Shown one piece after another: positions 5,987-23,700 of a stretch of 57,403 nt of DNA. Below the pieces are notes generated by a model, which saw only the letters and a program-made list of their open reading frames with translations, ran no database searches and was not told the origin of the DNA. The DNA comes from Bacteroidota bacterium. GTDB lineage: Bacteria; Bacteroidota; Bacteroidia; Chitinophagales; Chitinophagaceae. Location of the stretch: assembly GCA_023391315.1 (NCBI GenBank), contig JAEWBD010000420.1, forward strand, positions 1 to 57,403, read 5' to 3'. Numbering within the stretch: position 1 is the stretch's first letter; each line of letters starts with the position of its first letter. Made by a program: the position numbers and the translations under genes.

Positions 5987-6349
5987 TTAATATTGATTGG
6001 TGCTTAGCAAAACCAATGTGCAGGCCTGCATTGGCTGTATATTATTTTCAAGTGCAAGTTCAGCCAGCTCTTCGTTTTCAGCGCCGGGATTAAAGATGAT
6101 TCGTTTAGGATGCAACGAGAGAATATAATCGTAATACTGTTTTTGATTCTGGGCGTTCAAATAAAGCGTTACCGTATCCACATCTTCAACATTAATGGTT
6201 TCGTTTATTATATCAATATCATTTATCTGCCCTTTTCTTTTGCCGATAGGTATTACGGTATGCCCATGCGCTGCCAGCCTGCCGGTTGCAAGATTGCTGT
6301 ATCGTGCGGGATTGGGAGATGCCCCTAATACTACAGTTTTTTTATTCAT
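5987..6349 (-). CDS. CoA-binding protein (YccU-like)
   Basis: VVLGASPNPARYS, DTVTLYL, IIFNPGAEN, ACTLVLL; likely start ATG 6349. Confidence 0.9.
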   Translation of the reverse strand: MNKKTVVLGASPNPARYSNLATGRLAAHGHTVIPIGKRKGQINDIDIINETINVEDVDTVTLYLNAQNQKQYYDYILSLHPKRIIFNPGAENEELAELALENNIQPMQACTLVLLSTNQY

Positions 6350-6414
6350 ATTGAAAATTATAAATATTGTAAAAATCCGAAAAATGTTTGATGAAAGATT
6401 TGTTGTTAAACCTT

Positions 6415-6422
6415 TACATTTG
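6415..6422 (+). promoter_or_regulatory. -7 promoter box for the tRNA
   Basis: TACATTTG matches TAnnTTTG, 11 nt upstream of the tRNA. Confidence 0.6.
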
Positions 6423-6433
6423 CGGCAATTAAT

Positions 6434-6505
6434 GGCCCTGTAGTTCAATGGATAGAATAGAAGTTTCCTAAACTTTAGATACAGGTTCGATTCCTGTCGG
6501 GGCTA
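6434..6505 (+). tRNA. tRNA-Arg (anticodon CCT), CCA not encoded
   Basis: Acceptor GGCCCTG/CGGGGCT, D-arm, anticodon arm GAAGT-TTCCTAA-ACTTT, T-arm ACAGG-TTCGATT-CCTGT. Confidence 0.95.
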
Positions 6506-6513
6506 CTTACTTC

Positions 6514-6551
6514 CGGAAGGCATGTTTTAATACTTGCTTTCCGTTTTTTTT
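6514..6551 (+). terminator. tRNA terminator
   Basis: cggaaggca...tgctttccg followed by a T-run. Confidence 0.7.
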
Positions 6552-6790
6552 GGTGAACCCCCGATCCTGTGAATATTCGGCCAGATGTTATAAATACCAC
6601 TGCTGCAGATTGCCAACAGCGCACTTCTAAACAAGGCTTTATTAGCTTTTGAATAATCAATATTGATACCAGATTGAAGAAACAGTGAGTTTTGAAAAAA
6701 GGGCGTAACCGAAAAATGAAACGGGTAGGATAAACCCCGGGTTATATTACGGGTGCTTAATCTTATTCAATTAAATTTTTGAACTGCGTC

Positions 6791-6826
6791 AAAAAAAATT
6801 TCCCGCCAGGAATGGCAGGAAATTTT
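6791..6826 (-). terminator. Terminator, probably of the hpf transcript
   Basis: Minus strand aaaatttcctgcca-ttcc-tggcgggaaatttt plus T-run. Confidence 0.7.
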
Positions 6827-6913
6827 CAACCCTAAACCCTTAAAAAGCTAAGTTACGAACAAGTTCGCAAATATTCAAATGAAATTAGAGGAACCGGAAA
6901 GTGGTATGTCAGG

Positions 6914-7141
6914 CTACCGCTTTTTATTAATCGTTTTTAATCGCAAAGAATCAAGCTTGCGCAATAACGATGGCAGCGTTATATATTTTCTCCTCGCATA
7001 ATGCATCATAACAAATAAAAGAGGTATAGTAAGCATGAGCAATCAATGGAAGCCCGAACCACTAAAATATTCCGGCCTAATTATCACGCAGTTTATAAGC
7101 ACAATAATTAAAAAAACGGCCAGGAATAGCAGAATGTATTT
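6914..7141 (-). pseudogene. Degraded small membrane-protein frame resembling the N-terminal TM hairpin of the 15314 protein
   Basis: KYILLFLAVFLIIVLINCVIIRPEYFSGSGFH*LLMLTIPLLFVMMHYARRK...; internal TGA at 7043-7045; no intact start for the full frame. Confidence 0.35.
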
Positions 7142-7174
7142 TTATTTCGAGATATTATAATGCGATTTGATTAA

Positions 7175-7489
7175 CTATACAATTACTACTCTTTCGGCAA
7201 GTAACCTGCTTTTATTTCTTCTTAAAATTTCCTGCAGCACATCCACCGATTGCGAAACGGCCCTGCGATAACCTATACTGCTTTTTTTCACATAGTGATC
7301 ATAGCCGGGCACTTCCAGTCTTATCTCGCATAACCTGTTTTCATGTTTTTTGCTTGCACCTTTTCTAAGAATTACGTTCGCACGAATAATGTTATCGCAT
7401 TGGTCGAATAACTTTTTTACTTTCTCTTTTATGAATGCTTCAAGATCTTTGCCTGCTTTAAAATCTACCGATTTGATAATGATGTTCAT
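7175..7489 (-). CDS. hpf: Ribosome hibernation promoting factor / RaiA (sigma54 modulation, S30EA family)
   Basis: 104 aa; LEAFIKEKVKKL, CEIRLEVPG pattern typical of short HPF. Confidence 0.85.
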   Translation of the reverse strand: MNIIIKSVDFKAGKDLEAFIKEKVKKLFDQCDNIIRANVILRKGASKKHENRLCEIRLEVPGYDHYVKKSSIGYRRAVSQSVDVLQEILRRNKSRLLAERVVIV

Positions 7490-7556
7490 AAGATTATTTT
7501 ATAGTGAAGAAATATTTCAAAAGCAATAATTAATTGCATGACTTTCAGCCTTTATT

Positions 7557-7614
7557 CAAAGCTAAATTGAAGTTATTAGAAAGGGGTTAAGAACAAATTA
7601 GAAAGTCATTAAAT
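7557..7614 (-). promoter_or_regulatory. hpf promoter with 4 heptamer repeats at 11-bp period
   Basis: Minus strand ATTTAAT-n4-TTCTAAT-n4-TCTTAAC-n4-TTCTAAT-n10-TAGCTTTG. Confidence 0.75.
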
Positions 7615-9005
7615 TATTTTTGACGCACATTTTCGGCAATTGGAAGCTGAATTAAAAAAGTCGTGCCTTTGTTTACGATGGAGTTAACTTTTATTTGTCC
7701 TTTATGCAATTTAATAATGCGGTATACCAGCGGCAGGCCTACGCCAAAACCTTTTGTTGATTTGCTGTCTTCACTTCTGTAAAACGGCTGAAAAATATTT
7801 TTCAGATCACTTTCAGCAATACCTTTTCCATCATCTTCAATAATAATATAAATTTCTTTAGGCTGAACGAGTAATTTTACTACTGCATGATGGTCCGTCG
7901 AATATTTGCAGGAGTTAGAAACAACATTTTTTATAGCGGAAAGCAATAGCTCGGCATTGCCAAATACCAATAACCTGTCTTCATTTTCCGGCAATTGTTC
8001 AAACTCCAGCTTCACGGAATATTCTTTATCCACTTTTGTAATCTCGCCCGGCAACTGCATCAGTATTTCATCAATTCTAATTGAATTAATTTCAATACCA
8101 CCCTTTATGCCTGATACTGTTGCAAATTCCAATAATGTTTGTGTAAGTTTAGCCAGGTTGCGCACATCCTGGTAAACGGATTGCATGATGCCGCGGTACT
8201 CTTTAGCCTCCCTGTTTCGCTGCAGCGATACTTCCAGTTGGCTTGAAATTGAAGTAAGCGGCGTGGTTAATTCATGAGACACAGAAGAAATAAACCTGCG
8301 TTGCATTTCAAAGCTTTGCTGCAAACGGTCTAATAACTCATTTAAGGTTTCTGTAAGATAATTCCATTCATCTCTCGCACTCCCGGGTTTTATCCTGTGC
8401 TCAAGATTCTGTGCTGAAATGTCTTTCACATCATCTGCAATCTTCTTTATCGGCTTCAATAATATGTTTGAAAAAACATAACCCAGTGTAAACGCGGCCA
8501 GGTTGCCGCATGCAAAAATTATCAGTAAAATAATTTTGAGATGATGCAGGTTACGCTTGCCTTCTTCATCAAATGCAGCAGCTATAATAACAGGATGATA
8601 ATTAACCCCGGTATCGTACCAGGCAACGACTTCACGGTTGCCATCGGTAAAAAAATATGCTTTATCAATTCTTGCCTTGTCCAGTATGGCGGCAGTAACC
8701 TGCAAACTATCCTGTGGCATATCACTGTCAGTATATATTTTTTCATTAAAAGAATTATATACCTGTATCGTTTTATCGCGCATTGGTATCACCGTAAGTG
8801 AATCTATCTTTTTCATCAGCGCAGGGTTAAAGGCCGCGGTATCGTTCAGCATGTTGGCCGTGGTTATAGCCTGGTTTGTTAAATGCGCCTTCATATTTTC
8901 CAGTCTGATGTTGTAAAAAAAATAATAAATGCTGCCGCAAAACAGCCCAAGTAATACACACAGTATGAATGTAAACAGCAAGGTTATTTTTATTCTTACA
9001 TGCAT
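7614..9005 (-). CDS. HAMP-domain sensor histidine kinase (CusS/ArlS-like)
   Basis: Two TM helices, HAMP, H-box SHELTTPL, N box NVVSNSCKYS, DDGKGI, GFGVGL. Confidence 0.95.
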   Translation of the reverse strand: MHVRIKITLLFTFILCVLLGLFCGSIYYFFYNIRLENMKAHLTNQAITTANMLNDTAAFNPALMKKIDSLTVIPMRDKTIQVYNSFNEKIYTDSDMPQDSLQVTAAILDKARIDKAYFFTDGNREVVAWYDTGVNYHPVIIAAAFDEEGKRNLHHLKIILLIIFACGNLAAFTLGYVFSNILLKPIKKIADDVKDISAQNLEHRIKPGSARDEWNYLTETLNELLDRLQQSFEMQRRFISSVSHELTTPLTSISSQLEVSLQRNREAKEYRGIMQSVYQDVRNLAKLTQTLLEFATVSGIKGGIEINSIRIDEILMQLPGEITKVDKEYSVKLEFEQLPENEDRLLVFGNAELLLSAIKNVVSNSCKYSTDHHAVVKLLVQPKEIYIIIEDDGKGIAESDLKNIFQPFYRSEDSKSTKGFGVGLPLVYRIIKLHKGQIKVNSIVNKGTTFLIQLPIAENVRQK

Positions 9006-9691
9006 CAGTGGTCCTTTAAAATATAGCCCATGCCCACATGGGTTTGAATTAATTTATGTTCAAATTGTTTATCCACTTTATTACGCAGGTAACTTATATA
9101 AACGTCAATAACATTTGTATTGGTTTCAAAATCCACATCCCACACATTAATCGCTATATCCACTCTTGAAACAACTTTGTTTTTATTTCGAAGCAGGTAT
9201 TCAAGCAGTTGAAATTCCTTTGCAGTAAGATTAATTGCCCTGCCATCCCTTTTTACTTCTTTACTGTCGAGATTCATTTCAAGGTCTGCCGCTTTTAAAA
9301 TATTCCCAACCGGTAAATTTTGGTTCACTGTTCGTTTTAGCAATACCCTTATTTTTAACAGGAGCTCTTTAAATTCAAAGGGCTTTACCATATAATCATC
9401 AGCGCCTGATTCATACCCTTCAATCTTGTCGTTCAGCGCACTCATAGAAGTAAGCATGAGTATGGGTATTTGTTGATTTTTGGCGCGAATGGCTTTACAC
9501 AAATCATAACCGTTCATGCCGGGAAGGTTTATGTCGAGAATAATAAGATCAAACTCTTTTGCGCAGAATAAATGATAACCCAGTTTTCCATCGTAAGCAA
9601 CTTCAACGCTAAAGCCAATTTCATCAAGCCCGAACTTTAAAGTATCGGCAATTTTTTTTTCATCTTCAACAATCAATATTTTTCTTTCCAT
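9005..9691 (-). CDS. OmpR/PhoB-family response regulator
   Basis: Receiver ILIVEDE/LDINLP/KPF; winged helix LTAKEFQLL, VIDVYISYLRNK, THVGMGY. Confidence 0.96.
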   Translation of the reverse strand: MERKILIVEDEKKIADTLKFGLDEIGFSVEVAYDGKLGYHLFCAKEFDLIILDINLPGMNGYDLCKAIRAKNQQIPILMLTSMSALNDKIEGYESGADDYMVKPFEFKELLLKIRVLLKRTVNQNLPVGNILKAADLEMNLDSKEVKRDGRAINLTAKEFQLLEYLLRNKNKVVSRVDIAINVWDVDFETNTNVIDVYISYLRNKVDKQFEHKLIQTHVGMGYILKDH

Positions 9692-9758
9692 ATATAAAAA
9701 CAGCCATTATTTTAAGCAATTTACTTCTTCTCATTTTAGGCTAAAAAAATCAACCCGG

Positions 9759-9816
9759 TTCTAATCATATTCTAATGCGCCGTTAATGCCAGGTTAATGG
9801 CCCGTACGTAGTTTTG
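9759..9816 (+). promoter_or_regulatory. Promoter of the RIC-like/SPFH/USP/acnA run with 4 heptamer repeats
   Basis: TTCTAAT(9759) TTCTAAT(9770) CGTTAAT(9781) GGTTAAT(9792), n10, TAGTTTTG(9809). Confidence 0.8.
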
Positions 9817-9882
9817 AAAGTTATTATTCTGGTGAAGTATTCACCGTTAGGCCTGCATTGCAAAACAATTAAAAAGTTCGAT

Positions 9883-10506
9883 ATGAATACAATACAGCTA
9901 ATCAATCTAAAAAACACTGTTAGCGAAAATTATTTTACCGCAAAAAATTTAAACGATGCTGATATTAGCCGCCATGAAATAAACGATGCAACTAACCGTA
10001 GAAATAACAATAAGCTTAATGCGGACGTTCTTATCGATTACATTATTAAAACGCATCATGCTTTTGCGAAAAAAAGTACAATTGCCATTTATAACCTCAC
10101 GCAAAAAGTTGCATATCGTCACAGTGAAAAACATGTAGAATTAAAAAAGTTTAACGAAATCGCCTTTCTTTTCTTTCACCATTTGTTAAATCAAATGTTG
10201 AAAGAAGAGCAGTCCTTGTTTCCCTATGTAAGGCAAATAATGAGTGAACTAAAATATCAAGGCAAAAACAATAATGCTATTATACAACCTTTAAAAGAAA
10301 AGCTGCAATTGCAGCAGGCTGAACTTCAAAAATCTTTTGATTACCTGAAAACCTTCAGGGAAATAACAAACGATTACAAAGTACCGCAGGATGCATGCAG
10401 CTATTACACATCATTATTTGACAAGATGAAAGAACTTGAAAGCGACCTCGTTATCCATTTCCATTTGGAAGCTGATATTCTTTTCAGTTTGTGTAACAAG
10501 AGCTAA
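9883..10506 (+). CDS. Hemerythrin-fold RIC/YtfE-like protein, degenerate
   Basis: LIDYIIKTHH, KEEQSLFP, VPQDAC, DLVIHFHLE align with the RIC C-domain; TTG 9814 overlaps the -7 box, so ATG 9883 is preferred. Confidence 0.8.
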   Translation: MNTIQLINLKNTVSENYFTAKNLNDADISRHEINDATNRRNNNKLNADVLIDYIIKTHHAFAKKSTIAIYNLTQKVAYRHSEKHVELKKFNEIAFLFFHHLLNQMLKEEQSLFPYVRQIMSELKYQGKNNNAIIQPLKEKLQLQQAELQKSFDYLKTFREITNDYKVPQDACSYYTSLFDKMKELESDLVIHFHLEADILFSLCNKS

Positions 10507-10583
10507 CAAAGGATCTAAAAATAAATGAAATAAAATTTAAACCGTTTTAATCTCATTACTATTAATAATTTAAACACGATTAA

Positions 10584-11495
10584 ATGACAACACAAGCTTT
10601 ATCTATTATAATAGCAGGAATAGTATTTTTCTTTTTCCTGGGTATAAAAATAGTGCGCCCCACACACAGGGGCTTAATTGAAAGACTGGGTAAATATCAC
10701 AAGTTTGCTACGCCTGGCTTTCATTGGATCATTCCTTTCATAGATAAAATGTATGCGGTAAACGTAACGGAACAAATGGTGGATGCACAGCCACAGGAAA
10801 TTATTACCAACGATAACCTGAATGCAAGTGTGGATGCACAGGTATATTTTAAGGTTATAGAAACAGAGGAAAGCGTAAAAAATTCGCAGTACAATGTAAA
10901 TGATTACAGGCGGCAAATTGTAAACCTTGCCCGCACCACGCTCAGGAATATTATCGGAACACTCACATTAAGGTCCGCAAACAGTGAGAGAGGAAAGATA
11001 AATGCGGAGTTGCACAACACGCTTAGAAACGAAACATCAAACTGGGGCATTGTAATTGTACGCACAGAATTAAAAGAAATAGACCCGCCACGGGATGTGC
11101 AGGATACAATGAACAAAGTGGTGAAAGCAGAAAACGAAAAAATAGCGGCGATTGATTATGCCACTGCAACGGAAACGGCAGCAGATGGCGTAAAACGTGC
11201 AAAGATTAAAGAAGCAGAAGGCTATAAACGCGCTAAAATATTGCATGCCGAAGGTGAAGCTGAAGCCATTATGCTGGTAAATGAAGCTGCTGACAAATAC
11301 TTTACGGGCAATGCGCAGTTATTAAAAAAGCTGGAAACCGTTGAGGCTTCCCTTAAATCGAATGCAAAGATTGTGGTACCAACAGGTGCTGAGCTGGTGA
11401 ATATTATCGGCGATATGGCGGGCGTATTACCCATTCATACAACAAAGAATGAAAACGGGGAAAGCAAAAATACGCTGCTCTCCACACCTGTATAA
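10584..11495 (+). CDS. SPFH/band 7 (stomatin-like) membrane protein
   Basis: N-terminal TM, ERLGKY, PGFHWIIPFID, TTLRNIIG, WGIVIVRTEL. Confidence 0.93.
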   Translation: MTTQALSIIIAGIVFFFFLGIKIVRPTHRGLIERLGKYHKFATPGFHWIIPFIDKMYAVNVTEQMVDAQPQEIITNDNLNASVDAQVYFKVIETEESVKNSQYNVNDYRRQIVNLARTTLRNIIGTLTLRSANSERGKINAELHNTLRNETSNWGIVIVRTELKEIDPPRDVQDTMNKVVKAENEKIAAIDYATATETAADGVKRAKIKEAEGYKRAKILHAEGEAEAIMLVNEAADKYFTGNAQLLKKLETVEASLKSNAKIVVPTGAELVNIIGDMAGVLPIHTTKNENGESKNTLLSTPV

Positions 11496-11582
11496 ATTAG
11501 CAGGTATGATGTTTAAAATAACATGAATGAAAATTGCCCTGCCGCTGATGATTGAATTTCTTAAATATTAAATTTGTATAAA

Positions 11583-12056
11583 ATGAAGTTATTAATTGCT
11601 CTTGACAACAATACCGGCGCTCATCATATTGCTCAAGCCGGTTATAAATTAGCGGAGGCATTGCATGCGCATACCGTTTTGCTGCATGTAACTTCTAATG
11701 CAACCTATTACGCTTCCCCTAACTACTCACCTATATTGGGATACAATAATTTTAATAATGCAGAAGCTGTTCAAACAGACACAGGCGAGAAATTGAAAAC
11801 GGCTGCGGAAGATTACCTGGATAATGTAAAGTGGAACCTGGGAGATAAAACTATTGAAACAGTTGTAAAGGAAGGAGACTATGCAGAAAGCATACTTGAA
11901 ACAGCAAATGAAATAAAAGCAGATATGATAGTGATGGGAACGCACAGCCGCAAAGGGCTGGATAAAGTACTGCTGGGTAGCGTAGCTGAAAATGTTTTAC
12001 ATCATACAAACATACCGTTGTTCATTATTCCGGTAAAGCCTGCAGCGGCAGGATAA
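11583..12056 (+). CDS. Universal stress protein (UspA family)
   Basis: LLIALD, ADMIVMGTHSRKGLDKVLLGSVAENVL; ATG 11583 preferred. Confidence 0.95.
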   Translation: MKLLIALDNNTGAHHIAQAGYKLAEALHAHTVLLHVTSNATYYASPNYSPILGYNNFNNAEAVQTDTGEKLKTAAEDYLDNVKWNLGDKTIETVVKEGDYAESILETANEIKADMIVMGTHSRKGLDKVLLGSVAENVLHHTNIPLFIIPVKPAAAG

Positions 12057-12112
12057 TATACAGGCACAGGCTTTATTTAATTAGCAGGCAGCGGTAATAT
12101 AAACTAAACACC

Positions 12113-14890
12113 ATGTCAAAAGATCTTTATCAAACAAAAAAATTACTCACCACTAAAAACGGAACGTTTACTTACTATAGTCTTGCAGAATTGGAAAAAC
12201 AGGGGCATAATATCAGCAGGCTGCCTTTTTCCATTCGTATTCTTTTAGAAAATGCACTGCGCAATTTTGATGATTTCGCGGTAACAAAAGAAAACATCGA
12301 AACCATTCTTCAATGGCAGCCGGAAGGTTCGGATAAAGATATTCCCTTTAAACCTGCCCGCGTTTTAATGCAGGATTTCACCGGCGTTCCCGCCGTAGTG
12401 GATATTGCTTCGCTGCGTGCCGAAATAGCGCGAAAGGGCAAAAATCCTGATGAAATAAACCCCTTAATTCCTGTTGATCTTGTAATTGACCACTCGGTGC
12501 AGGTAGATTATTTTGGAACTGAATACGCTTATAACCGTAATATGGATGAAGAGTATAAGCGTAACCAGGAACGCTACCAGTTTCTTAAATGGGCGCAAAA
12601 ATCATTTACCAATTTCAGCGTGGTGCCGCCGGGAATGGGCATTTGCCACCAGGTAAATCTCGAATACCTTTCAAAAGGTGTAATAGAGCGCAACGGTGAA
12701 ATTTTTCCAGATACTTTAGTGGGCACCGATAGCCACACACCCATGGTAAACGGTATTGGCGTAGTGGCCTGGGGCGTGGGTGGTATTGAAGCGGAAGCCG
12801 CCATTTTAGGGCAGCCCATTTATTTTATAACGCCGCAGGTGATAGGGCTAAAATTAACCGGCAGGTTGCCACTGGGTTCCACCGCAACAGATCTGGTACT
12901 TTCCATTGCTGAACTTTTAAGGAAATATGGCGTGGTTGGAAAATTTGTAGAAGTGTTCGGCCCGGGCCTCGACAATCTTTCTGTTCCCGACAGGGCCACA
13001 ATTGGCAATATGTCACCTGAATTTGGCTGCACCATCACCTATTTCCCGGTAGATGATAAAACCCTGGAATATATGCGCAGGAGTAACCGTTCGGAAGAAC
13101 AGGTGAAACTGGTAGAAGATTACTGCAAAGCGAATATGCTTTGGCGCACCGGTACTGAAGACATTCATTACACAGATATTATAGACCTGGATATTTCAAC
13201 AATAGAACCTTCGGTTGCCGGGCCAAAACGCCCGCAGGACAAAATTTTATTAAAAAATTTCAAATCAAAATTTATAAGCCTTTTAGATGAAACCTATGGC
13301 CGCAAATACACAGAAGATAAACAATTAAGCCGGTGGATGGCTGAAGGTGGCAGCCAACCTGTAACGCAACCAAAAACCGAATTAACGCCCGAACCGGAAA
13401 TTGAAGAAACCGTTGTAAACGGAATGAAGAATGTATGGGTAACCATTGGCGAAGAAAGTTTTATGCTTTCAGATGGCGCCGTAGCTATTGCTGCCATTAC
13501 ATCATGCACCAATACTTCCAATCCGTTTGTAATGGTAGGTGCTGGCTTGGTGGCAAGAAAAGCAAGGGAACATGGATTGAAAACAAAACCCTGGGTAAAA
13601 ACTTCGTTGGCGCCCGGCTCCAAAGTGGTAACAGATTATCTTGAAAAAGCTGATTTGTTAGACGACCTGGAAGCTATGCAGTTTCATACAGTGGGTTATG
13701 GCTGCACCTCCTGCATTGGCAACTCCGGCCCTTTGCCCACTTTTGTTGCCAAAGCCGTGGAAGAACATGATGTTGTAGTAGCCTCCGTTCTTTCCGGCAA
13801 CCGCAATTTTGAAGCAAGGATTCACCCCCAGGTAAAAATGAATTTTTTAATGTCGCCAATGCTGGTGGTAGCATATGCTATTGCGGGCCGGGTGGATGTG
13901 GATTTAATAAATGAACCCATAAGTTTTGACCCGAACCAGCAGCCTGTTTATTTAAAAGATATATGGCCTGCTGATGATGAGATAAATGAGTTAATGCGCA
14001 GTGTGCTTTCTCCAAATGACTTTGCAAAAAATTATGCAGAAATTTTTGAAGGCAATGATATATGGAGAAACCTTGATGTGCCGGATGAAAGATTATACCA
14101 GTGGGATGAAAATTCCACTTACATCAAGGAAGTCCCTTTTTTTTATAATATTTCTGATGATGCACCACCTTTAAATGATATTCATGATGCAAGAGCTTTA
14201 TTGGTGCTGGGCGATAGCATTACAACAGATCATATTTCACCAGCCGGGCAGTTTAATGAATCTTCTTCTGCAGGTAAATATTTAATAAGCCGCGGTGTAA
14301 AAAGAGAGAATTTTAATTCCTATGGTTCAAGAAGAGGAAATGATGAGGTAATGGTACGCGGCACTTTTGCCAATGTGCGCATAAAAAATAAACTGGCGCA
14401 GAAAGAAGGCAGCTTTACAAAATATTTTCCCACCGGCGAGGAACTTTCTGTATATGATGCCTCCATAAAATATAAACAAACACAAACGCCGTTAGTGGTG
14501 CTGGCTGGTAAAGAATATGGCAGCGGTTCATCACGTGACTGGGCGGCGAAAGGCGCATTCCTGCTGGGTATTAAAGCCGTACTTGCAGAAAGTTATGAAC
14601 GTATACACAGGAGCAACCTGGTAGGAATGGGCGTTTTACCACTTCAATATAAACCAGGCGATACGGCGGAAAGTTTAGGCCTTACCGGCAATGAAGTATT
14701 TACTATATCGGGCATTGCTGAAGACATAAAGCCGCTAAAAAAAGTGCAGGTAATTGCTAAAAAAGAAGATGGCAGTGAAATTAAATTTGAAGCAATTGCC
14801 CGGGTAGATTCAAAAATAGAAATAGAGTATTACAGAAACGGTGGAATATTACAATATGTATTAAGACAGTTTTTAAAAAAGACAAGCTAA
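12113..14890 (+). CDS. acnA: Aconitate hydratase A
   Basis: RVLMQDFTGVPAVVD, GTDSHT, AAITSCTNTSNP, GYGCTSCIGNSG, YGSGSSRDWAAKG. Confidence 0.97.
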   Translation: MSKDLYQTKKLLTTKNGTFTYYSLAELEKQGHNISRLPFSIRILLENALRNFDDFAVTKENIETILQWQPEGSDKDIPFKPARVLMQDFTGVPAVVDIASLRAEIARKGKNPDEINPLIPVDLVIDHSVQVDYFGTEYAYNRNMDEEYKRNQERYQFLKWAQKSFTNFSVVPPGMGICHQVNLEYLSKGVIERNGEIFPDTLVGTDSHTPMVNGIGVVAWGVGGIEAEAAILGQPIYFITPQVIGLKLTGRLPLGSTATDLVLSIAELLRKYGVVGKFVEVFGPGLDNLSVPDRATIGNMSPEFGCTITYFPVDDKTLEYMRRSNRSEEQVKLVEDYCKANMLWRTGTEDIHYTDIIDLDISTIEPSVAGPKRPQDKILLKNFKSKFISLLDETYGRKYTEDKQLSRWMAEGGSQPVTQPKTELTPEPEIEETVVNGMKNVWVTIGEESFMLSDGAVAIAAITSCTNTSNPFVMVGAGLVARKAREHGLKTKPWVKTSLAPGSKVVTDYLEKADLLDDLEAMQFHTVGYGCTSCIGNSGPLPTFVAKAVEEHDVVVASVLSGNRNFEARIHPQVKMNFLMSPMLVVAYAIAGRVDVDLINEPISFDPNQQPVYLKDIWPADDEINELMRSVLSPNDFAKNYAEIFEGNDIWRNLDVPDERLYQWDENSTYIKEVPFFYNISDDAPPLNDIHDARALLVLGDSITTDHISPAGQFNESSSAGKYLISRGVKRENFNSYGSRRGNDEVMVRGTFANVRIKNKLAQKEGSFTKYFPTGEELSVYDASIKYKQTQTPLVVLAGKEYGSGSSRDWAAKGAFLLGIKAVLAESYERIHRSNLVGMGVLPLQYKPGDTAESLGLTGNEVFTISGIAEDIKPLKKVQVIAKKEDGSEIKFEAIARVDSKIEIEYYRNGGILQYVLRQFLKKTS

Positions 14891-14926
14891 TCACTTAAAC
14901 AAATTATATCCTTCTTCCAAATGATT

Positions 14927-14973
14927 ACATTAGAATAAGATTAGAAGAATGATTTCTAATCTTATTCTAATGT
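14927..14973. repeat. Perfect 20-bp inverted repeat with 7-nt spacer
   Basis: acattagaataagattagaa (14927-14946) / ttctaatcttattctaatgt (14954-14973). Confidence 0.9.
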
Positions 14974-15011
14974 TCCCTTAATGCCGGGTTAATACCCGGT
15001 ACCTAATTTTG
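14954..15011 (+). promoter_or_regulatory. Promoter of the glutamate-synthase-like/rnk unit with 4 heptamer repeats
   Basis: TTCTAAT(14954) TTCTAAT(14965) CCTTAAT(14976) GGTTAAT(14987), n10, TAATTTTG(15004). Confidence 0.8.
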
Positions 15012-15313
15012 AATAAATGTAACAGGTATGTAAGGCCGGTAGCTTTTTATTACAGGTACCGGATTTTTCATCTATAAAATTATATACGAAGCGTTCAAGC
15101 CATGACAAGCATTAAAAAATATTTTCAATATATCTTCTGCCGGCAATTCTTGCCCGGGGTGCTGTCATGCTATACCTGTATTTCTTACATAGGTAATCAA
15201 CGATTGCCTTATTACCCAAATTTTAAGGACTTTAATAAGTAATCCCCCGCTCTGGTTTAAATACAGACCCGGGGGTGGGTTTTGTATTTTTTTAATCATA
15301 AAAACTTATTATT

Positions 15314-16882
15314 ATGTCCGGCAAACGAAAAATTGTTTCGGCAAGCAATATTATTATAGCCTTACTTGTATTTGTCAATGTTATCATCTTACAGGCCGCT
15401 TTTATTGGAAATGAAAAATGGTATTGGGCGCTTGCCATAAGCCTGCCATTGTTAGTACTGGCTATTTTAAATATCCGTCAAAAAAAACATGCGATTTTAC
15501 GCAACTTTCCCGTGATAGGGTATTTGCGTTATCTTCTTGAATCAATACGGCCGGAGATAAGACAATACTTTTTTGAATCGGAGCTGGACGGAAAACCTTT
15601 TAGCCGCCGGCAGCGGTCCATCGTTTACCAGAGAGCAAAAAATGAAAAAGAAACGGTAGCTTTTGGTATGCAGGCAGACCCTAATGCGCCCGGTTTTGAG
15701 TGGGCTGCACATTCGGCGTATCCAAAAACTTTGCATGAAAAAGATTTGACGGTATTGATTCGCAACCAATACTGTCTGCAACCTTACAGGGCAAGCATTT
15801 ATAATATTGGTGCAATGAGTTATGGCGCCCTCAGCAAAACAGCCATTATGGCCCTGAATAAGGGCGCAAAACTGGGTGGCTTTGCCCATAATACAGGAGA
15901 AGGTGGCATAAGCGAATATCATCTTGGTGGTGGCGATCTCATTTGGCAAATCGGTACAGGTTATTTTGGGTGCCGCAATGAAAAGGGAGAATTCCATCCA
16001 CTTGCATTCCGCAAAAATGCATTGCGCCCGCAGGTAAAAATGATTGAGCTAAAATTATCGCAGGGTGCCAAGCCCGGCCATGGCGGCATTCTGCCTGCAT
16101 CAAAAAATACAGAAGAAATAGCTGCCATAAGACAGGTGCAGCCTCATACCGTGGTGCATTCGCCCGCAGCGCATTCGGCATTTAATACGCCGGAAGGAAT
16201 GGTGCAGTTTCTTCAATTACTCAGGGAATTATCAGATGGTAAACCGGTTGGCTTCAAAATATGTATTGGCGATAAACAGGAATTTATTGATATCTGCCAG
16301 GCCATAAAAAACTCCGGTTGTATTCCCGATTTTATTTCAGTTGATGGCGGTGAAGGCGGCACCGGCGCTGCCCCGTTAGAATTTACCGATCACCTGGGTA
16401 TGCCGTTATACGAAGCCCTCGCTTTTGTAAAGCGGGCATTGGATGAATATGGCTTGTCAGGCAACATTAAAATAATTGCCGCGGGTAAAATAATTACGGC
16501 ATTCGATATACTTAAGGCAATAGGGCTTGGCGCTTCTGCCTGTTACAGCGCAAGAGGAATGATGTTTGCGTTGGGCTGCATACAGGCATTAATATGCGAT
16601 TCGGGTAAATGTCCTGTTGGCGTAGCCACACAAAACCCGGCTTTATATAAAGGCCTCGATCCTGCTGATAAAGGCGTGCGGGTTTTCAATTATCACTTAA
16701 ATACCATTAAAGCAACTAAAGAACTGATGGGCGCCTGTGGATTTGCACGCATTGAAAGCGTTCATGCTGCAAAGTTTTTTAGAAGAACAGACGCTCAAAC
16801 AACCAGGAGCTTCGAAGAAATATATTTCAACAAAATAAACGAGTTTAAACAACAACAAAATTTTGAGCCACAATTAAATTAA
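15314..16882 (+). CDS. FMN-binding glutamate synthase family protein (stand-alone FMN domain with N-terminal TM hairpin)
   Basis: AMSYGALS, NTGEGG, KLSQGAKPGHGG, DGGEGGTGAAP, Fe-S motif CIQALICDSGKCP. Confidence 0.93.
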   Translation: MSGKRKIVSASNIIIALLVFVNVIILQAAFIGNEKWYWALAISLPLLVLAILNIRQKKHAILRNFPVIGYLRYLLESIRPEIRQYFFESELDGKPFSRRQRSIVYQRAKNEKETVAFGMQADPNAPGFEWAAHSAYPKTLHEKDLTVLIRNQYCLQPYRASIYNIGAMSYGALSKTAIMALNKGAKLGGFAHNTGEGGISEYHLGGGDLIWQIGTGYFGCRNEKGEFHPLAFRKNALRPQVKMIELKLSQGAKPGHGGILPASKNTEEIAAIRQVQPHTVVHSPAAHSAFNTPEGMVQFLQLLRELSDGKPVGFKICIGDKQEFIDICQAIKNSGCIPDFISVDGGEGGTGAAPLEFTDHLGMPLYEALAFVKRALDEYGLSGNIKIIAAGKIITAFDILKAIGLGASACYSARGMMFALGCIQALICDSGKCPVGVATQNPALYKGLDPADKGVRVFNYHLNTIKATKELMGACGFARIESVHAAKFFRRTDAQTTRSFEEIYFNKINEFKQQQNFEPQLN

Positions 16883-16888
16883 AAACAA

Positions 16889-17302
16889 ATGAAGAAGATA
16901 AAAGACACGCTTGTTTTAAGACAAGATGATTATGCATTATTGATTTCTTATCTGAACCATGCCCGCAGAAATTCAAGTATTGACAGGCAGAATGCAGATG
17001 AGCTTACCGCTGAGTTAAAGAAAGCAACCCTTGTGGACAATGCTGACTTTCCACCCGATGTGGTTGGGTTAAATTCTAAAGTCCGGATAAAAACAGACGA
17101 TAAAAATGAGGAAATGGAATTGATGATTGTTACGCCTGATAAAGCAAATATCAAAGAGAAAAAAATTTCCATCATGGCGCCAATAGGAACAGCTTTAATT
17201 GGTTTCCGCGAGGGACAAAAAGTAAAATGGAAAGTGCCATCGGGCCATAAAACATTTACTATTTTAAATGTTATGAATGATTATAGCGGAAACCCAGCAT
17301 AA
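16889..17302 (+). CDS. rnk: Rnk / GreA-GreB family transcription factor
   Basis: PDVVGLNSKV, ISIMAPIGTALIG, WKVPSG; short N-terminal coiled coil as in Rnk. Confidence 0.8.
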   Translation: MKKIKDTLVLRQDDYALLISYLNHARRNSSIDRQNADELTAELKKATLVDNADFPPDVVGLNSKVRIKTDDKNEEMELMIVTPDKANIKEKKISIMAPIGTALIGFREGQKVKWKVPSGHKTFTILNVMNDYSGNPA

Positions 17303-17368
17303 TAAACTGTTATCGGATGTCTATCTGCAGCGGATAGAATTCAAATATCGGCCAGCAGCGGATCGCGC

Positions 17369-17402
17369 AAAGCTGTTCAATATTGAACAGCTTTTGCTTT
17401 GT
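17369..17402 (+). terminator. Palindromic terminator
   Basis: aaagctgttcaatattgaacagcttt (perfect palindrome) followed by T-rich tail. Confidence 0.7.
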
Positions 17403-17703
17403 TATGTAACTACAAAATTTAATCAATAGTTTGCGGCGAACCCTGCAAAGTGTTTAAGAACTGATAAGCAAACACAACCCTTGCCGCATATTTTAGTAAA
17501 CCGCTAACCTGCGTTCAAACTGGCATATACCTATGCACATATATTTATAGTTTAATATAAACATTTAAAAAATGTTAGGCTTTTATACCTAATCTATTAT
17601 TTTATTCAGGAATTTAATTACAACCTAATGATTTTAGTAATCAGGGATAAAAAAGTTAATTGCTGTAACCTTGTAAGACCTTCTTTAATTAAATCTGTAT
17701 CTG

Positions 17704-20700
17704 ATGAAACAAAATTTTACGCTTGTTTTTCTTTTATTGGTATTATTTCTTGCAGGTTTCCATAAAAATGTAAAAGCACAATCTGTTTTAGATCCCAATG
17801 ACCCGGTAATCAATTACGATCCGCAGAACCCACCCACAGAACCGCCTTATGGTCAGATAGGCAAATGGGTTAGAACAAAAAATGTATCATGGAATTCAGA
17901 TTCTTATAAGGCCTACATCTACGAAGGCTCCTGTTTCCGCTTAAAATTTCCCAAAACTTATAACCCCACAGTAAATGATGGTAAAAAATATCCAATGGCA
18001 ATCGTATTTCATGGCGGTGGGGAAAGTGGTCCTATAACGGATAATGAAAGTCAATTATATCATGGTGGCAAGCCTTATATGGATGCAGTTGACAATGGCA
18101 CATTCGATGGGTATGTGTTGTTCATGCAAAGCCAGGGGTTCTGGGGCGTTACCTCCTATCAAAGGGTGATTGATATTATTGATTATATCGTTCAATATAA
18201 TAAGCTTGATCCCTTTTGCATGAGCGTAAACGGTTTGTCTTCCGGCGGACAGGCATCGTGGGATATGATTCTTAATTATCCTGATTATATAGGGGCATCA
18301 TTACCCATGTCAAGCGTATCTATCGGCTATAAAGAGCCTTCCGTAGTGAATAAACTAAAGTTTACACCTATATGGAATTTCCAGGGCGAGCTCGATGGCT
18401 CGCCTTCACCCTCTACCGCACAACAGGTACGCGACGCTATGCTTGCTGCAGGTGCAAATTATCGTTACTCTGAGTATGCCAATACAGCGCATAGCACATG
18501 GGACAAGGCATTTGCTGAACCCGATTTTTTTCCGTTCATACTAAGAGGGTACAGCTCTAACCCCTGGGTTTTATATGGCAGGACCGGGTTTTGTACCGGC
18601 GACGCCATAAATGTTACCATTGGCGTTGCAACCGGGTTTGATAAATATGAATGGAAAAAAAACGGGAACCTTATTGCCGGCGCCACCGGCAATACAATTA
18701 CAACAACTTCATTTGGAATTTATGAGGCAAGGGTTTTAAGAGGAACATTATGGTCTGACTGGTCGCGTATACCGGTGAATATACATGTAACACCACCTAC
18801 AAAAGCGCCACCAATAAAGGTTTCAGGCTTAATGAGCCCTGTAATTGTTTCCGGGGATGGTAAAAATTATGTCAATCTTGAAATACCCGACAGTGGTTAT
18901 ACCAGCTATACCTGGAAGAAAGCCGGCAACAGCACTGTGCTGGGAACCGAAAGAATATTCAAGGCAACAGAGCCGGGTAATTACACAGTTTCTGTAACAG
19001 AAGAATATAGTTGTTCCAGCATTCCGTCTGACCCCTTTTTAGTGGTGAATGCCGCTGGGCAAAATGCTCCACCGCCTGCTACCAACCTGGTTGCCAATGC
19101 CAATTCGGGAACGGAAGTTTTGCTTACCTGGTTAGATAACCCGCATCCCTCATATAACGAAACAGCCTTTGAAATTTACAGAAGCCAGTCTGCCACAGGA
19201 GGATTTAGCTACATTGGCAAGGCCCCATCCGATAGTTTGGAATACAGGGATGCTACCGCTTCTCCGGGTTTAAATTATTATTATAAAGTAAGAGCTATAA
19301 ACAATAATGGGGCAGCTGCAATGTCGAATATTGCCAATACAATTACAACTGTCGACAACATTGCGCCGACGGCGCCGGCTAACCTTCAAATTGTTTATAC
19401 AACCAATTCTTCTATAAAAATTTCATGGAGCAGTTCAACGGATAATATTGGCGTAACCGGTTACCAGGTATTTTTAAACGGTGAGAAAAGTTATGTTTCC
19501 ACCGATACATCTTTTTTAATAAGCGGCCTTAAAACAGGGCAACGCTATACTATTTATGTAAAGGCTGCAGATTCAAGCGGCAATATTTCCCCGCAAAGCG
19601 AAATTAAAAGCGCAGCGGCCGTTTTAAATGGCCTGGTATATAAATATTATGAAGGTTATTGGAAAAATGTCCCGGACTTTAATACACTTACACCTTTGGA
19701 AACAGGCATCACCCCTAACGTTAACCTGAAGCCTGCACGGCGGCAGCCTCAGCTTGCATTTCTTTGGGAGGGCTATATAAATATTCCCGTTGATGGCACC
19801 TACACTTTTACCACTAATTCAGATGATGGCAGCAAATTTTGGCTTAATGAATATGATCCCGGTATTATGCCGTTTATAAATAATGACGATGGGGTGAGAA
19901 AATCTGCCAAGTCAAAATCCAACTCCATTATACTTAAAAAAGGCCTCTACCCTATAAGTCTCGGATATTTTCAGAATAAGGGCCCCAGAACAATGCAGTT
20001 AGCGTGGTCATGCAAAGAGCTGTTTGGAAACACAACAACACGTATAATTGCCAACATGTATTTCAAAAGCGATTATGTACCTGAAGGAACAGCGCCGAAG
20101 AAACCATTAAACCTCCAGGCAGCAGCAACATCGTTCGATAAAATAAATCTTACCTGGACAGATAACAGTAACAATGAAACCGGCTTCCAGGTTTACAGGA
20201 AAGTGGTGAACGGAACAGAAGAGATCATCCATACAACGGCAGCAGGAGTTTCAGCTTTTACAGATTCAGGTTTAAACCCGCGCACAAAATACATTTACCG
20301 CGTAAACGCTGTAAACGAATTTGGCACTTCTGCAAAAACGCCGTTAGTAAATGCTACCACCACAGCCATGCCGGCTATAAAAACGCCCACATTATTTAAA
20401 GCAACAACGCTATCTTCCTCATCAGTTAAATTAACGTGGAAAGACAACAATACCACAGAAACCGGCTACCAGGTATTCAGGTCTGTATCAGACAGCCTGC
20501 ATTTTAAACCTGCTGCTATATTACCGGAAAACAGCAGTACTTATACAGATAGTAATCTTTATGGAAACATGGTTTACTATTATAAAGTGAAAGCCATAAA
20601 TAGTTTGGCAACGTCTCAGGCTACGGTTGCAGTAAAAGGCATCACGTTAAACAACAGGCCTTTAATAGATAATGGTTTTTTAAACAGTCAGCAATTAACG

Positions 20701-23700
20701 GTAAAGGCTGGCGCGCAAACGATTGTACAGATTAATGCAAGCGATGCGGATGGTGACCGGCTTACTTTCTCATTTTCCAATATTCCATCTTTTGCAGGTT
20801 TTACAGATAATGGAAACGGAACAGCAACGTTTGCCTTCAATCCATTAAGCACCAATACCGGAACATATAACGGGTTAAAAATTCGTGTTACAGATACACA
20901 TGGCGGTAAAGACAGCCTGGTGTTTACACTTATTGTAAATACGAATACAAATCCGGTTATGGATTCCATAGCGGATTATACAGTAAGCGAAGGCGGGCAT
21001 TTGAATATAACATTAAATGCAACCGACCCCAATACTGCTCAAACACTTCAATGGTCAGTTAAAGGTTTGCCCGCTGGCTATTCCATTTCACCCATAGATA
21101 ACAGATCTGCAGCATTGATAATAAATCCTGGTTACGATGCCTCCGGCATATATAATGCAGAAGTGACGGTAAATGATGGCGCAGGTGGAATTGTAAAACG
21201 CAGTTTTATACTAACTGTATCCGATTATGATCCTAACCTGGAGGTTTATATAAGATTCAAAGATCGAAATGATATGGGCGCGCCGTGGAATAATATAACC
21301 TCAGTAAACACTCCGGTTTTAAAAGATAATCTTGGCAGAACAACCAATATCGGGTTGAATTTGCAAACAAGCTGGTGGTCAGTATGGCATGAAGGCCCTT
21401 CAACAGGTAACAACTCCGGCATTTATCCTGATAATGTTTTGAAGGATTATTATTATTTCGGAGTTTTCGGAGGCCCGGAAACCGTTACAAGCCAGATTAC
21501 AGGGCTGGATACTTCAAGAAAATACAGCATTAGTTTTTATGCCGGCAGTGTTTGGATAGGGGCTTCAGATAATGGCACTACCGTTTATACAATCGGGTCG
21601 CAGTCCAAATCTTTATATGTTCAGGGCAATACGACCAATACTGCAGATTTTAAAGACATTAAACCTGCAGCCAACGGCACGATCACCTTTACCATGTCAA
21701 AAGGCGCTAACACGCCTGTTGGTTACCTCAATGCCATCACTATTAAATCTTTCTATACAGATTCTATCAGGCCGGTGAAGCCTGCATCTTTACAGGCTTC
21801 TTACATTGCCGGGCAGGGTGTTCAGTTAACGTGGAATGATGTAGCTTATAATGAAACAAAATACCAGGTATATCGTTCATTTGGTTCAGGCAGCGGCTTT
21901 ACTTTAATAGCAGATAGTCTTGACATAAATACAGAAAGTTATATTGACAATTCTGTATCAGGCAACACCGGCTATTTCTATTTTGTACAAGCCGTAAACA
22001 ATACAGGAGCTTCTATTCCTTCCGATACGGCAAGTATAGTCACAGCCAATAAAGTTCCGGCAATAACACCCATAGCCAATGTTTCCATTAAAAATAACCA
22101 GCAGAAAAACATTGATATACTGTCGACAGATGATAGCAGTGATAACATTGTGCTTAGTGTTGAAAACCTGCCTTCATTTGCAACATTTACTGACAATGGA
22201 AATGGCACAGGGCGCATTGCCGTCAATCCAACAAACGGCATAACAGGAAGGTTCGATGATATTACAGTAACAGCTACTGATAACCATAATGCATCAGGCT
22301 CTGTAACGTTTAGCATAACAGTAACGGATCAGAATATTCAATCTGTTTATATTAATTTCTCTAATGGTGCAATGGCGCCGTCACCATGGAATAATTTTAC
22401 AGCATGGCCTTCGGCCAATGCCGGAATATCAGGGTTAAAAGATGATGCGAACATTACTACCGGCATTTCTTTAAAACTTCTGAATGGCTTCCAGGGTAAT
22501 ATTGCAGGTGGAATGCAACCTGGCAATGATTATAATCTATACCCGCAGGAAGTAGTGCGCACCGGCGAATATGAGGGCAGTTCAAAAATTGATTCCATGA
22601 AAATTTCAGGGCTTGATCAAACTAAAAAATACAACTTCATTTTCTTCAGCAGCCATGATGATGGATTAAACGGAAATACAAGGTTTGAAATAAACGGGCA
22701 GGCCGTAACGCTGGATGCTGCTTATAATATTAATAAAACGGTGCAGATAAACGGCATTACGCCTAACGGCGCCGGTGAGGTAACTATAAAAATATCAAAG
22801 GCAGCCGGAGCAGATTATGCTTATATAAATTCACTGGTTATTCAAAGCTATAGCAGCTCGCTTCAGCTTTTAGCGCCTGCAGATTTATTCGTTAAAGAAG
22901 TAACTAAAAATATGGTGAAGCTGCAATGGGCCGACAGAAGTTTTGATGAAACAGGCTTCGAAATATGGCGTGCAACAGACAGCAATGCAGTATATACTTT
23001 ACAGAAAACCGTAGCTGCAAATGTTACAGCATTTACAGATTCAAACCTGCTTTCTGCAAAAACCTATTATTATTCAGTAAGGGCTGTAAAACCAGGAGCG
23101 CAATCAGGCTTTTGCAATACAGTTGCCGCTACTACTTACGCACAGGTTATTTATGTGAATTTCACTTTTCAAAACCAGGCTAACGTACCCTGGAATAATA
23201 CATTAGCATTACCGGAAGATGGTTTAGTGTGGAATAATCTTTTGGATGATTCGGGTATCCCATCGTCCATTAGTTTGCAACAAACGGGCATTTTTGCCGG
23301 CATATATGCACCGGGTATGAACACAGGCAATAACTCCGGCGTATTCCCCGATAAAGTTTTAGCTGATAGTTATGGGTTGTTTACAGGGCAAAGTGCAACC
23401 ATGAAAGTAACGGGACTGAATGTTAACCTTACATATGATTTTACATTCTTTGCAAGCTCGCAGGCAGGAGGAGATGTGAATTCCTCTTATACGGTCAATG
23501 GTAAAAAAGCCGTATTGAATGCTTCGCTAAATACCAAAGGCACTATAACGGTTTATAATGTTCAGCCAGATGAAAATGGAGAAGCGGTTATTTCCATTGC
23601 ACCCAATACACTTACCTCGCAGTTTGGATTACTTGGCGCTCTTTTAATTAAAGAACATGAAGCTTCAGGTAATGCACCGTCAACAGAAAATACGTTGGCA

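Follow-up and report, generated by a model that had tools for sequence, protein, structure and literature searches.

Four-heptamer promoters and an adjacent OmpR/PhoB-type two-component system form a predicted stress regulon in Chitinophagaceae

What controls a compact set of stress genes that lies on both sides of a single two-component system? The window considered here is a 57,403-nt stretch of DNA from a Bacteroidota bacterium of the family Chitinophagaceae (contig JAEWBD010000420.1 of assembly GCA_023391315.1, our contig C156). The assembly comprises 4,504,045 bp in 476 contigs and is 94.9% complete. An initial annotation, made from the sequence alone, had described three promoters between positions 7,557 and 17,302 with the same four-heptamer layout, and had proposed that the OmpR-type regulator encoded among them co-activates a self-contained regulon. 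We find that the three sites share one register, are unique in this genome, are conserved in relatives and occur together with the regulator gene. Probably, the local regulator activates transcription in a PhoB-like manner from four head-to-tail heptamers that lie over a missing -33 element.

Three promoters in one register and the two-component system beside them

The promoters precede, respectively, the hibernation factor gene hpf, a hemerythrin/RIC-like gene, and a unit with a glutamate-synthase-domain gene (GltS-like) and an rnk-like gene. The coordinates of these sites and of the two-component system are as follows.

7557..7614, minus strand: promoter 1, with heptamers at 7614-7608, 7603-7597, 7592-7586 and 7581-7575, spacer 7574-7565 and -7 box TAGCTTTG at 7564-7557
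9759..9816, plus strand: promoter 2, with heptamers at 9759-9765, 9770-9776, 9781-9787 and 9792-9798, spacer 9799-9808 and -7 box TAGTTTTG at 9809-9816
14954..15011, plus strand: promoter 3, with heptamers at 14954-14960, 14965-14971, 14976-14982 and 14987-14993, spacer 14994-15003 and -7 box TAATTTTG at 15004-15011
9005..9691, minus strand: OmpR/PhoB-family response regulator, 228 aa (Response_reg PF00072, 103.7 bits; Trans_reg_C PF00486, 88 bits)
7614..9005, minus strand: sensor histidine kinase, 463 aa (two transmembrane helices, a periplasmic PDC-like domain of ~125 aa, HAMP, HisKA and HATPase_c)

At all three sites, as the annotation had it, four nnYTAAY heptamers with an 11-bp period are followed by a 10-nt spacer and a TAnnTTTG -7 box in identical register. 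The heptamers read ATTTAAT, TTCTAAT, TCTTAAC and TTCTAAT in promoter 1 (minus strand from 7614), TTCTAAT, TTCTAAT, CGTTAAT and GGTTAAT in promoter 2 (from 9759), and TTCTAAT, TTCTAAT, CCTTAAT and GGTTAAT in promoter 3 (from 14954). The first base of promoter 1 is the last base of the kinase stop codon, and promoter 2 is divergent from the regulator gene. All three boxes agree with the Bacteroidota sigma-A -7 consensus given in PMC9723704. Placing TAnnTTTG at -12 to -5, as in Flavobacterium psychrophilum (PMC9723704), gives predicted transcription starts near 7552 (minus strand), 9821 and 15016. The heptamers then occupy about -62/-56, -51/-45, -40/-34 and -29/-23, and the array, ending with heptamer 4 at about -29 to -23, overlaps the region of the upstream promoter element, a geometry compatible with class II (polymerase-recruiting) activation. 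Pieces assembled from RNA runs (5-7% of sampled words, assembled contigs) are short, for example 7244-7511 in hpf, 10035-10269 and 9469-9670; as all of them stop short of the predicted starts, they are silent on transcription starts, strand and level. A scan for sigma-70 hexamers (33 versus 33.1 in shuffles) was discarded as not applicable to Bacteroidota promoters.

The pattern TAA[TC] repeated four times at 11 bp has five matches on both strands of the assembly, namely the three sites and two overlapping matches on contig C221. A four-unit matrix built from the 12 heptamers scores the three sites at 30.9-33.7 bits and the next independent position at 20.0. Because a matrix built from the sites it scores is circular, leave-one-out scans were run, and each time the left-out site ranked third genome-wide (~9 million positions) with 25.2-31.4 bits, versus 18.5-20.9 for the next independent position. 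The pair TTCTAAT-N4-TTCTAAT alone occurs four times in the assembly, versus ~0.2 expected from base composition by our own arithmetic. Thus the regulon is self-contained in this assembly, with three sites only, the assembly being fragmented such that sites falling in contig gaps could escape detection. The C221 matches belong to a different array (C221:698-760) of five GTAAC-type units with an 11-bp period upstream of a 938-aa secreted protein, which probably serves a different OmpR-family regulator as its operator.

Of the seven Trans_reg_C proteins in this genome, the regulator alone is encoded in the window, as had been noted. Its receiver and winged-helix Trans_reg_C domains and its full-length PDB matches (DrrD, RegX3, PrrA and PhoP) place it in the OmpR/PhoB family, and the sites have an operator layout of the type such a protein would bind, with heptamers at exactly 11 bp in all three window sites and in 24 distinct sites of the genus. 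Within the family it scores below the curated cut-offs. The closest models are cztR_silR_copR (TIGR01387, 240.5 bits, cut-off 279.2), CusR (NF007346, 232.9, cut-off 420) and HprR (NF008567, 200, cut-off 353); two PhoB models (TIGR02154, 177, cut-off 296.2; Bacteroidetes PhoB NF053854, 177.1, cut-off 270) and PhoP (135, cut-off 336) score lower, and the OmpR model is also below its cut-off. Identity with RprY was ruled out (NF051850, 134 bits versus a cut-off of 370), and the same model gives 152-155 bits on the Segatella, Phocaeicola and Mucilaginibacter homologues. Six regulator homologues likewise fall below every curated cut-off.

The last base of the regulator gene overlaps the kinase start by 1 nt. 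The best NCBIfam model for the kinase is the heavy-metal sensor kinase TIGR01386 (169.5 bits, cut-off 292.55, residues 4-455). A structural model of the sensor domain (predicted local distance difference test score 84.4) shows a single PDC/PAS-like domain between two long helices, and this domain matches WalK, KinD, CzcS and CusS with template-modelling scores of 0.3-0.66 and up to 16% identity among the matches listed. Because the sensor domain is a generic PDC/PAS-like one with weak matches, its fold does not name a ligand.

Arrays and regulator across the genus and the phylum

Regulator orthologues with 82-98% identity are present in 7 of 23 genomes of the genus, including the window's own, and genome G021 holds a partial orthologue that runs off a contig end (72% identity over residues 2-52). 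Exact YTAAY x4 arrays number 25 in these eight regulator-holding genomes (3, 3, 3, 4, 2, 2, 4 and 4) and 0 in the other 15, an association that supports the proposed link between regulator and motif and that we take as strong but qualitative, with no statistic attached, because related genomes are non-independent. The 15 regulator-less genomes have seven one-mismatch matches only, and a reversed-pattern control gave 16 matches over all 23 genomes. Searching 41 related genomes with up to three mismatches returned one to four good matches in each of eight same-genus genomes, versus four matches in total for the reversed control. AT-rich three-mismatch matches in G001, G029, G030 and G038 look like chance, as does that in G007, although G007 is included in the count of 9 of 22 same-genus genomes that gave a match. 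Genomes other than the window's own were searched as a whole with fixed patterns only (up to three mismatches), and single loci covered at most 20 kb each, which under-counts divergent sites and complete regulons.

The arrays stand before orthologous units. One follows the kinase stop codon directly and precedes hpf in five of seven genus relatives (G003, G006, G011, G015 and G018) and also at locus L031. Six of the seven have an array before the hemerythrin-like gene, divergent from the regulator (with one mismatch in G015), and promoter 2 itself is kept in G003, G006, G011, G012, G018 and L031. The GltS-like/rnk unit is preceded by an array in five of seven (G003, G006, G012, G015 and G018). 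Further arrays precede an SPFH-DUF488-universal stress protein (USP) unit with its own four heptamers (G011 and G018), a DUF4142 gene (G011), and, in G021, a second two-component pair as well as USP genes. Beside orthologous regulators in L032-L034 and G021, no target recurs more often than USP genes. The second pair of G021 (L136:245-2911) has an OmpR-type regulator just 34% identical to that of the window, and its array suggests a regulatory cascade in that larger genome.

The distinct sites of the genus have the consensus TTCTAATnnnATTCTAATnTnnnnTTAATnnCnnnCTAAT-n10-TAnnTTTG, with spacers and flanks of low information. TAnnTTTG begins exactly 10 nt after heptamer 4 in 16 of 24 distinct 70-nt sites and is replaced by TAnnTTGC in four, while three of the remaining four match the -7 box at 5/6 positions. 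The Bacteroidota sigma-A consensus also includes a TTTG element at -33, a location that here falls across units 3-4 of the array and carries TTTG in none of the 24 distinct sites. Because this element is absent at all of them, we infer that the promoters depend on an activator. The TAnnTTGC boxes (L017/L142:597, L140:8466, L135:632 and L136:138) keep the same offset as TAnnTTTG and resemble TAnnTTGY, which PMC9723704 lists as a separate promoter class in F. psychrophilum.

Beyond the genus, 80 loci with regulator homologues (989 kb, one genome per species) were scanned with the window matrix. The nearest named homologues are from Chitinophagaceae and Chitinophagales metagenome-assembled genomes (MAGs). 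Among the Bacteroidota loci, 17 of 30 reach at least 25 bits and 20 of 30 at least 23, whereas the 50 non-Bacteroidota loci all stay below 23 (maximum 22.0). Base composition favours AT-rich genomes, yet AT-rich Bacteroidota loci such as L047, L053-L056 and L090 score at most 8.4. At most positive loci the array lies ~10-220 bp past the kinase stop codon, one exception being L046, where it is ~1 kb downstream.

The genes behind the array differ among orders. Those scanned in Chitinophagales relatives (66-89% regulator identity) comprise tandem USPs, hpf and genes for a hemerythrin protein, a TPR protein and DUF4399, as well as gpsA with an otsA/otsB fusion, mscS and an outer-membrane efflux protein. 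A small open reading frame (ORF) and bestrophin follow the array in Mucilaginibacter and Pseudosphingobacterium, a PAP2 protein in Aureispira and an epimerase in a Prolixibacteraceae MAG. The target in Arcicella is nhaD, an assignment that replaced an earlier one as a CitM-type Mg-citrate carrier (Pfam CitMHS). In all five Bacteroidales loci, from Segatella copri, a Bacteroides MAG, two Phocaeicola species and a Porphyromonadaceae MAG, mgtA lies downstream of four TTCTAAT heptamers (TIGR01524 1183-1284 bits, cut-off 610.75), and the arrays, listed below, follow the homologous kinase gene.

L042:9164-9240, Bacteroidales array upstream of mgtA
L043:9049-9125, Bacteroidales array upstream of mgtA
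L045:9124-9200, Bacteroidales array upstream of mgtA
L046:10079-10155, Bacteroidales array upstream of mgtA
L063:9049-9125, Bacteroidales array upstream of mgtA

This neighbourhood suggests a PhoPQ-like control of Mg2+ uptake in gut Bacteroidales that has not been described previously. When the regulators of Segatella, Phocaeicola, Arcicella and Mucilaginibacter and the Segatella kinase are compared with the window's genome, the window pair is by far their best match (best versus next match, 230 vs 139, 237 vs 148, 259 vs 157 and 215 vs 97 bits), and the periplasmic domains of the kinases align end to end at 21-24% identity. This is what a single orthologous family would show if its operator had been kept and its targets re-assigned. 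The window system is a branch of a phylum-wide family and not a peculiarity of this genome, and ionic, osmotic or envelope stress together with growth arrest is the theme of the family's targets.

The module's genes and the leader of the third unit

The genes behind the three promoters, and the smaller features around them, are listed here.

6851..7078, minus strand: remnant of a second glutamate-synthase-domain gene, seen by blastn and tblastn against L141
7175..7489, minus strand: hpf, short ribosome hibernation factor of 104 aa and target of promoter 1 (PF02482, 37.6 bits, cut-off 23.7)
9814..10506, plus strand: hemerythrin/RIC-like di-iron protein (PF01814, 24.8 bits, cut-off 25.3; TIGR03652, 112, cut-off 204.7)
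10584..11495, plus strand: SPFH/Band 7 (stomatin/HflK-like) protein (PF01145, 139 bits)
11574..12056, plus strand: USP (PF00582, 103 bits)
12113..14890, plus strand: aconitate hydratase AcnA (NF006757, 1352 bits, cut-off 686)
14929..14972, no strand assigned: perfect 19-bp inverted repeat, whose right arm is heptamers 1-2 of promoter 3
15102..15242, plus strand: leader ORF of 46 aa with the invariant C-terminal (Y/F)YPNFKDFNK
15246..15294, plus strand: GC-rich terminator-like hairpin and T-tract, beginning 3 nt past the leader stop codon (one prediction places it at 15265-15282)
15314..16882, plus strand: FMN glutamate-synthase-domain protein (GltS-like), 522 aa (PF01645, 278 bits)
16889..17302, plus strand: Rnk-like RNA-polymerase secondary-channel factor with a GreA/GreB C-terminal domain (PF01272, 80.8 bits; NF004396, 103.8, cut-off 109)
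17369..17394, plus strand: terminator-like palindrome ending the third unit

Profile scores bear out the original gene calls of the module, with the hemerythrin/RIC-like protein below its cut-offs. The mechanical start of that ORF (TTG 9814) sits inside the -7 box, and GTG 9832 or ATG 9883 is more likely the real start. In relatives a second Glu_synthase-domain gene follows hpf (PF01645 in the G006 and G018 copies; 430 aa in G006), of which the window keeps the remnant listed above, ~960 bp missing relative to G006. Near the module's ends, a tRNA gene at 6434-6505 (RF00005, 66.7 bits) overlaps the mechanical start of an opposite-strand CoA-binding ORF, and a 2110-aa ORF lies directly downstream at 17704-24036.

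Promoter 3 had been read as driving the GltS-like and rnk genes; the unit is the same, but its first cistron is the leader ORF, which that reading overlooked. The ~300 nt between promoter 3 and the GltS-like ATG are conserved in six genomes, and a leader ORF of 46-47 aa is present in all six genomes of the genus that have promoter 3. Compared by eye, the last 10 leader codons of G003 and G018 differ by synonymous changes only. The C-terminus of the peptide did not turn up in the 120 other genomes of the order that were searched, and among these the leader therefore looks genus-restricted. The hairpin has a predicted energy of -10.6 to -20.6 kcal/mol in the six genomes, with a shorter, different stem in G018, and the next ATG comes ~35 nt after the hairpin and T-tract. 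An Rfam scan of positions 6000-18000 (E at most 1) returned only the tRNA and a sub-threshold match to the DUF805 RNA, and the 300-nt leader of unit 3 matched no known riboswitch. G015 has lost the GltS-like gene and G018 retains 102 aa of it, but both keep the leader, hairpin and rnk, which makes these three the constant cargo of the third unit. A conserved short ORF thus stands directly before an intrinsic-terminator-like hairpin, upstream of GltS-like and rnk, and it is a reasonable inference that the two form a candidate translation-coupled (translation-sensing) attenuator, at which the hairpin would terminate transcription.

The inverted repeat at 14929-14972 would fold as RNA into a hairpin of -27.4 kcal/mol just after acnA. 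It occurs only where promoter 3 follows acnA (G000, G006 and G012) and is absent from G003 and G015; it could be a 3' hairpin or terminator of acnA, or an extra inverted half-site.

Probable activation by the local regulator, rival explanations and known systems

In the proposed mechanism, the kinase would sense an extracytoplasmic signal through its periplasmic PDC-like domain and phosphorylate the regulator, which would bind the four direct repeats (heptamers of consensus TTCTAAT with an 11-bp period), probably as two head-to-tail dimers. The repeats span about -62 to -23 of three predicted sigma-A promoters that have a good -7 box and no -33 TTTG. From its position over the -33 region, the regulator would recruit RNA polymerase in the way that PhoB does at Pho boxes, and PhoB-like activation from a site overlapping -33 is the best reading because the TTTG element is missing there. 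Three units would be induced together, namely hpf; the hemerythrin/RIC-like, SPFH, USP and acnA genes; and the leader ORF and hairpin with the glutamate-synthase-domain gene and rnk. In the third unit a second, translation-coupled layer is probable, in which a ribosome that has reached the leader stop codon would mask the hairpin's 5' arm.

The same regulator on the same heptamers might instead be a repressor, blocking RNA polymerase at -62 to -23 and releasing the promoters when dephosphorylated. The array does overlap the region normally used for the -33 contact, and RprY of P. gingivalis has reportedly been proposed as a repressor. M. tuberculosis PhoP is called activator or repressor (PMC11825685), so OmpR-family proteins can repress. 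However, the promoters look incomplete without an activator, lacking the -33 TTTG in all 24 distinct sites. The fixed 10-nt phasing of head-to-tail repeats and box at all genus sites is also typical of polymerase recruitment, by analogy with the Pho box, and we regard repression as unlikely. A different factor, either one of the six other Trans_reg_C regulators of this genome or an unrelated protein, would make the adjacency coincidental or indirect, and the recognition-helix region (TN[VF][IV]DVY[IV][NS]YLR[NK]K) is indeed common to homologues that include those of the array-less loci L047 and L053-L056. Against such a factor stand the perfect presence/absence match in the genus (8 of 8 versus 0 of 15) and the position of the array, which from Chitinophagaceae to Bacteroidales borders either the kinase stop codon or the divergent intergenic region of the regulator; we find this explanation quite improbable. 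It is hardly credible that the arrays simply reflect duplicated promoters, sites 2 and 3 having been copied from one segment, and form no selected operator. These two sites share non-heptamer bases, such as TTAATGCC.GGTTAAT and the GTAC before the -7 box, and there is a local inverted duplication at 14929-14972. Yet site 1 differs in every spacer and keeps the register, spacers of relatives diverge at all site types while heptamers and the 10-nt offset stay, and arrays precede non-homologous genes in other members of the phylum.

Further observations weigh against activation by the local regulator as set out above. In the five Bacteroidales mgtA promoters the -7 box lies a constant 22 nt, not 10 nt, after heptamer 4, and the array-to-box geometry is therefore not universal. 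No -7 box with more than 5/6 matches was found for the regulator operon's own promoter. The related genomes do not count as independent samples. The sites themselves supplied the matrices and patterns, and the conservation of YTAAY among the collected sites is partly by construction because the search imposed those columns. The only features that do not depend on the search pattern are the TTC prefixes, the constant offset of the -7 box and the gene context.

The proposed circuit offers a precise, testable operator with a predicted cognate regulator and a compact target set of ribosome hibernation, USPs, stomatin, AcnA and an RNA-polymerase channel factor. Because mgtA of Segatella, Bacteroides and Phocaeicola has this operator and pair in front of it, the prediction can be tested in genetically tractable gut species, in which the mgtA-linked operator may account for the regulation of Mg2+ uptake. 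More speculatively, and we hold this as a possibility that is more doubtful than not, the pair and its four TTCTAAT units could be an undescribed phylum-wide Bacteroidota system for ionic or envelope stress, a counterpart of PhoPQ or EnvZ-OmpR. It would act on mgtA in gut Bacteroidales and on nhaD and bestrophin in Cytophagales and Sphingobacteriales, and would have been rewired to growth arrest in soil Chitinophagaceae (hibernation factor, USPs, SPFH, AcnA and Rnk), with an arrest-type leader (YYPNFKDFNK-stop abutting the terminator) on the rnk unit. If this were true, a ribosome-sensing leader, for which the leader ORF and terminator are the candidate attenuator, would couple translation state to an RNA-polymerase secondary-channel factor.

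To our knowledge, the classical (non-hybrid) two-component regulons of Bacteroidota are poorly mapped. The annotation had known of no such regulon in this phylum, and we found no description of the operator or regulon in the literature searched on RprY, Bacteroidetes OmpR motifs, USP and hibernation regulons, Bacteroides mgtA and Chitinophagaceae (subscription journals lay outside its scope). A close parallel is PhoB, likewise an OmpR/PhoB winged-helix regulator that binds 11-bp direct repeats, and the Pho box adjoins the downstream promoter element and replaces the upstream one. The Pho box is described as a pair of 11-bp repeats in which 7 bases are conserved and 4 less so (PMC2648988), a pattern that the heptamers and variable 4-nt gaps here reproduce. 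Unlike PhoB, the window regulator falls below both PhoB models, is paired with a kinase that has a periplasmic sensor domain, and is predicted to act on stress rather than phosphate targets through four TTCTAAT units instead of two of CTGTCAT, at Bacteroidota sigma-A promoters (-7 TAnnTTTG). Streptomyces PhoP, an OmpR-family regulator too, binds 11-nt direct repeat units (PMC2275107); several such units are a shared feature, whereas phylum, consensus and regulon (phosphate) differ.

CusR/CopR and HprR provide the best-scoring curated models for both proteins, and CzcS and CusS are among the PDC folds that the sensor domain resembles. The scores are nevertheless below cut-offs, the regulon has no metal-efflux or msrPQ-type genes, and the operator is a four-fold direct repeat, while the CusR/HprR box is palindrome-like. 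RprX/RprY of Bacteroides and Porphyromonas is, like the window pair, a Bacteroidota OmpR-family system tied to stress. Na+ transporters adjoin it in some species (PMC6032018), and the terms 'consensus', 'motif' and 'binding site' were not found in the RprY papers searched.

The likeness to DosR that had been suggested holds for gene content only, in that one two-component regulator there governs USP genes and an S30AE/HPF-type ribosome stabiliser (PMC3390679). The regulator family argues against it, the window regulator being a Trans_reg_C protein with a periplasmic-sensor kinase. DosR is of the NarL/LuxR type and works with cytoplasmic haem kinases. PhoP/PhoQ control of mgtA in enterobacteria is a parallel in that, in five of five Bacteroidales loci, the pair homologous to the window's lies with its array directly upstream of mgtA, and in that the PhoP box is likewise a direct repeat with an 11-bp period. 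Unlike PhoP, the window regulator reaches 135 bits against a cut-off of 336, and the Mg2+ link is one of gene neighbourhood, in other orders and not in this genome. An OmpR/PhoB regulator on tandem repeats is thus a known kind of system, of which the member, operator and regulon described here appear to be new.

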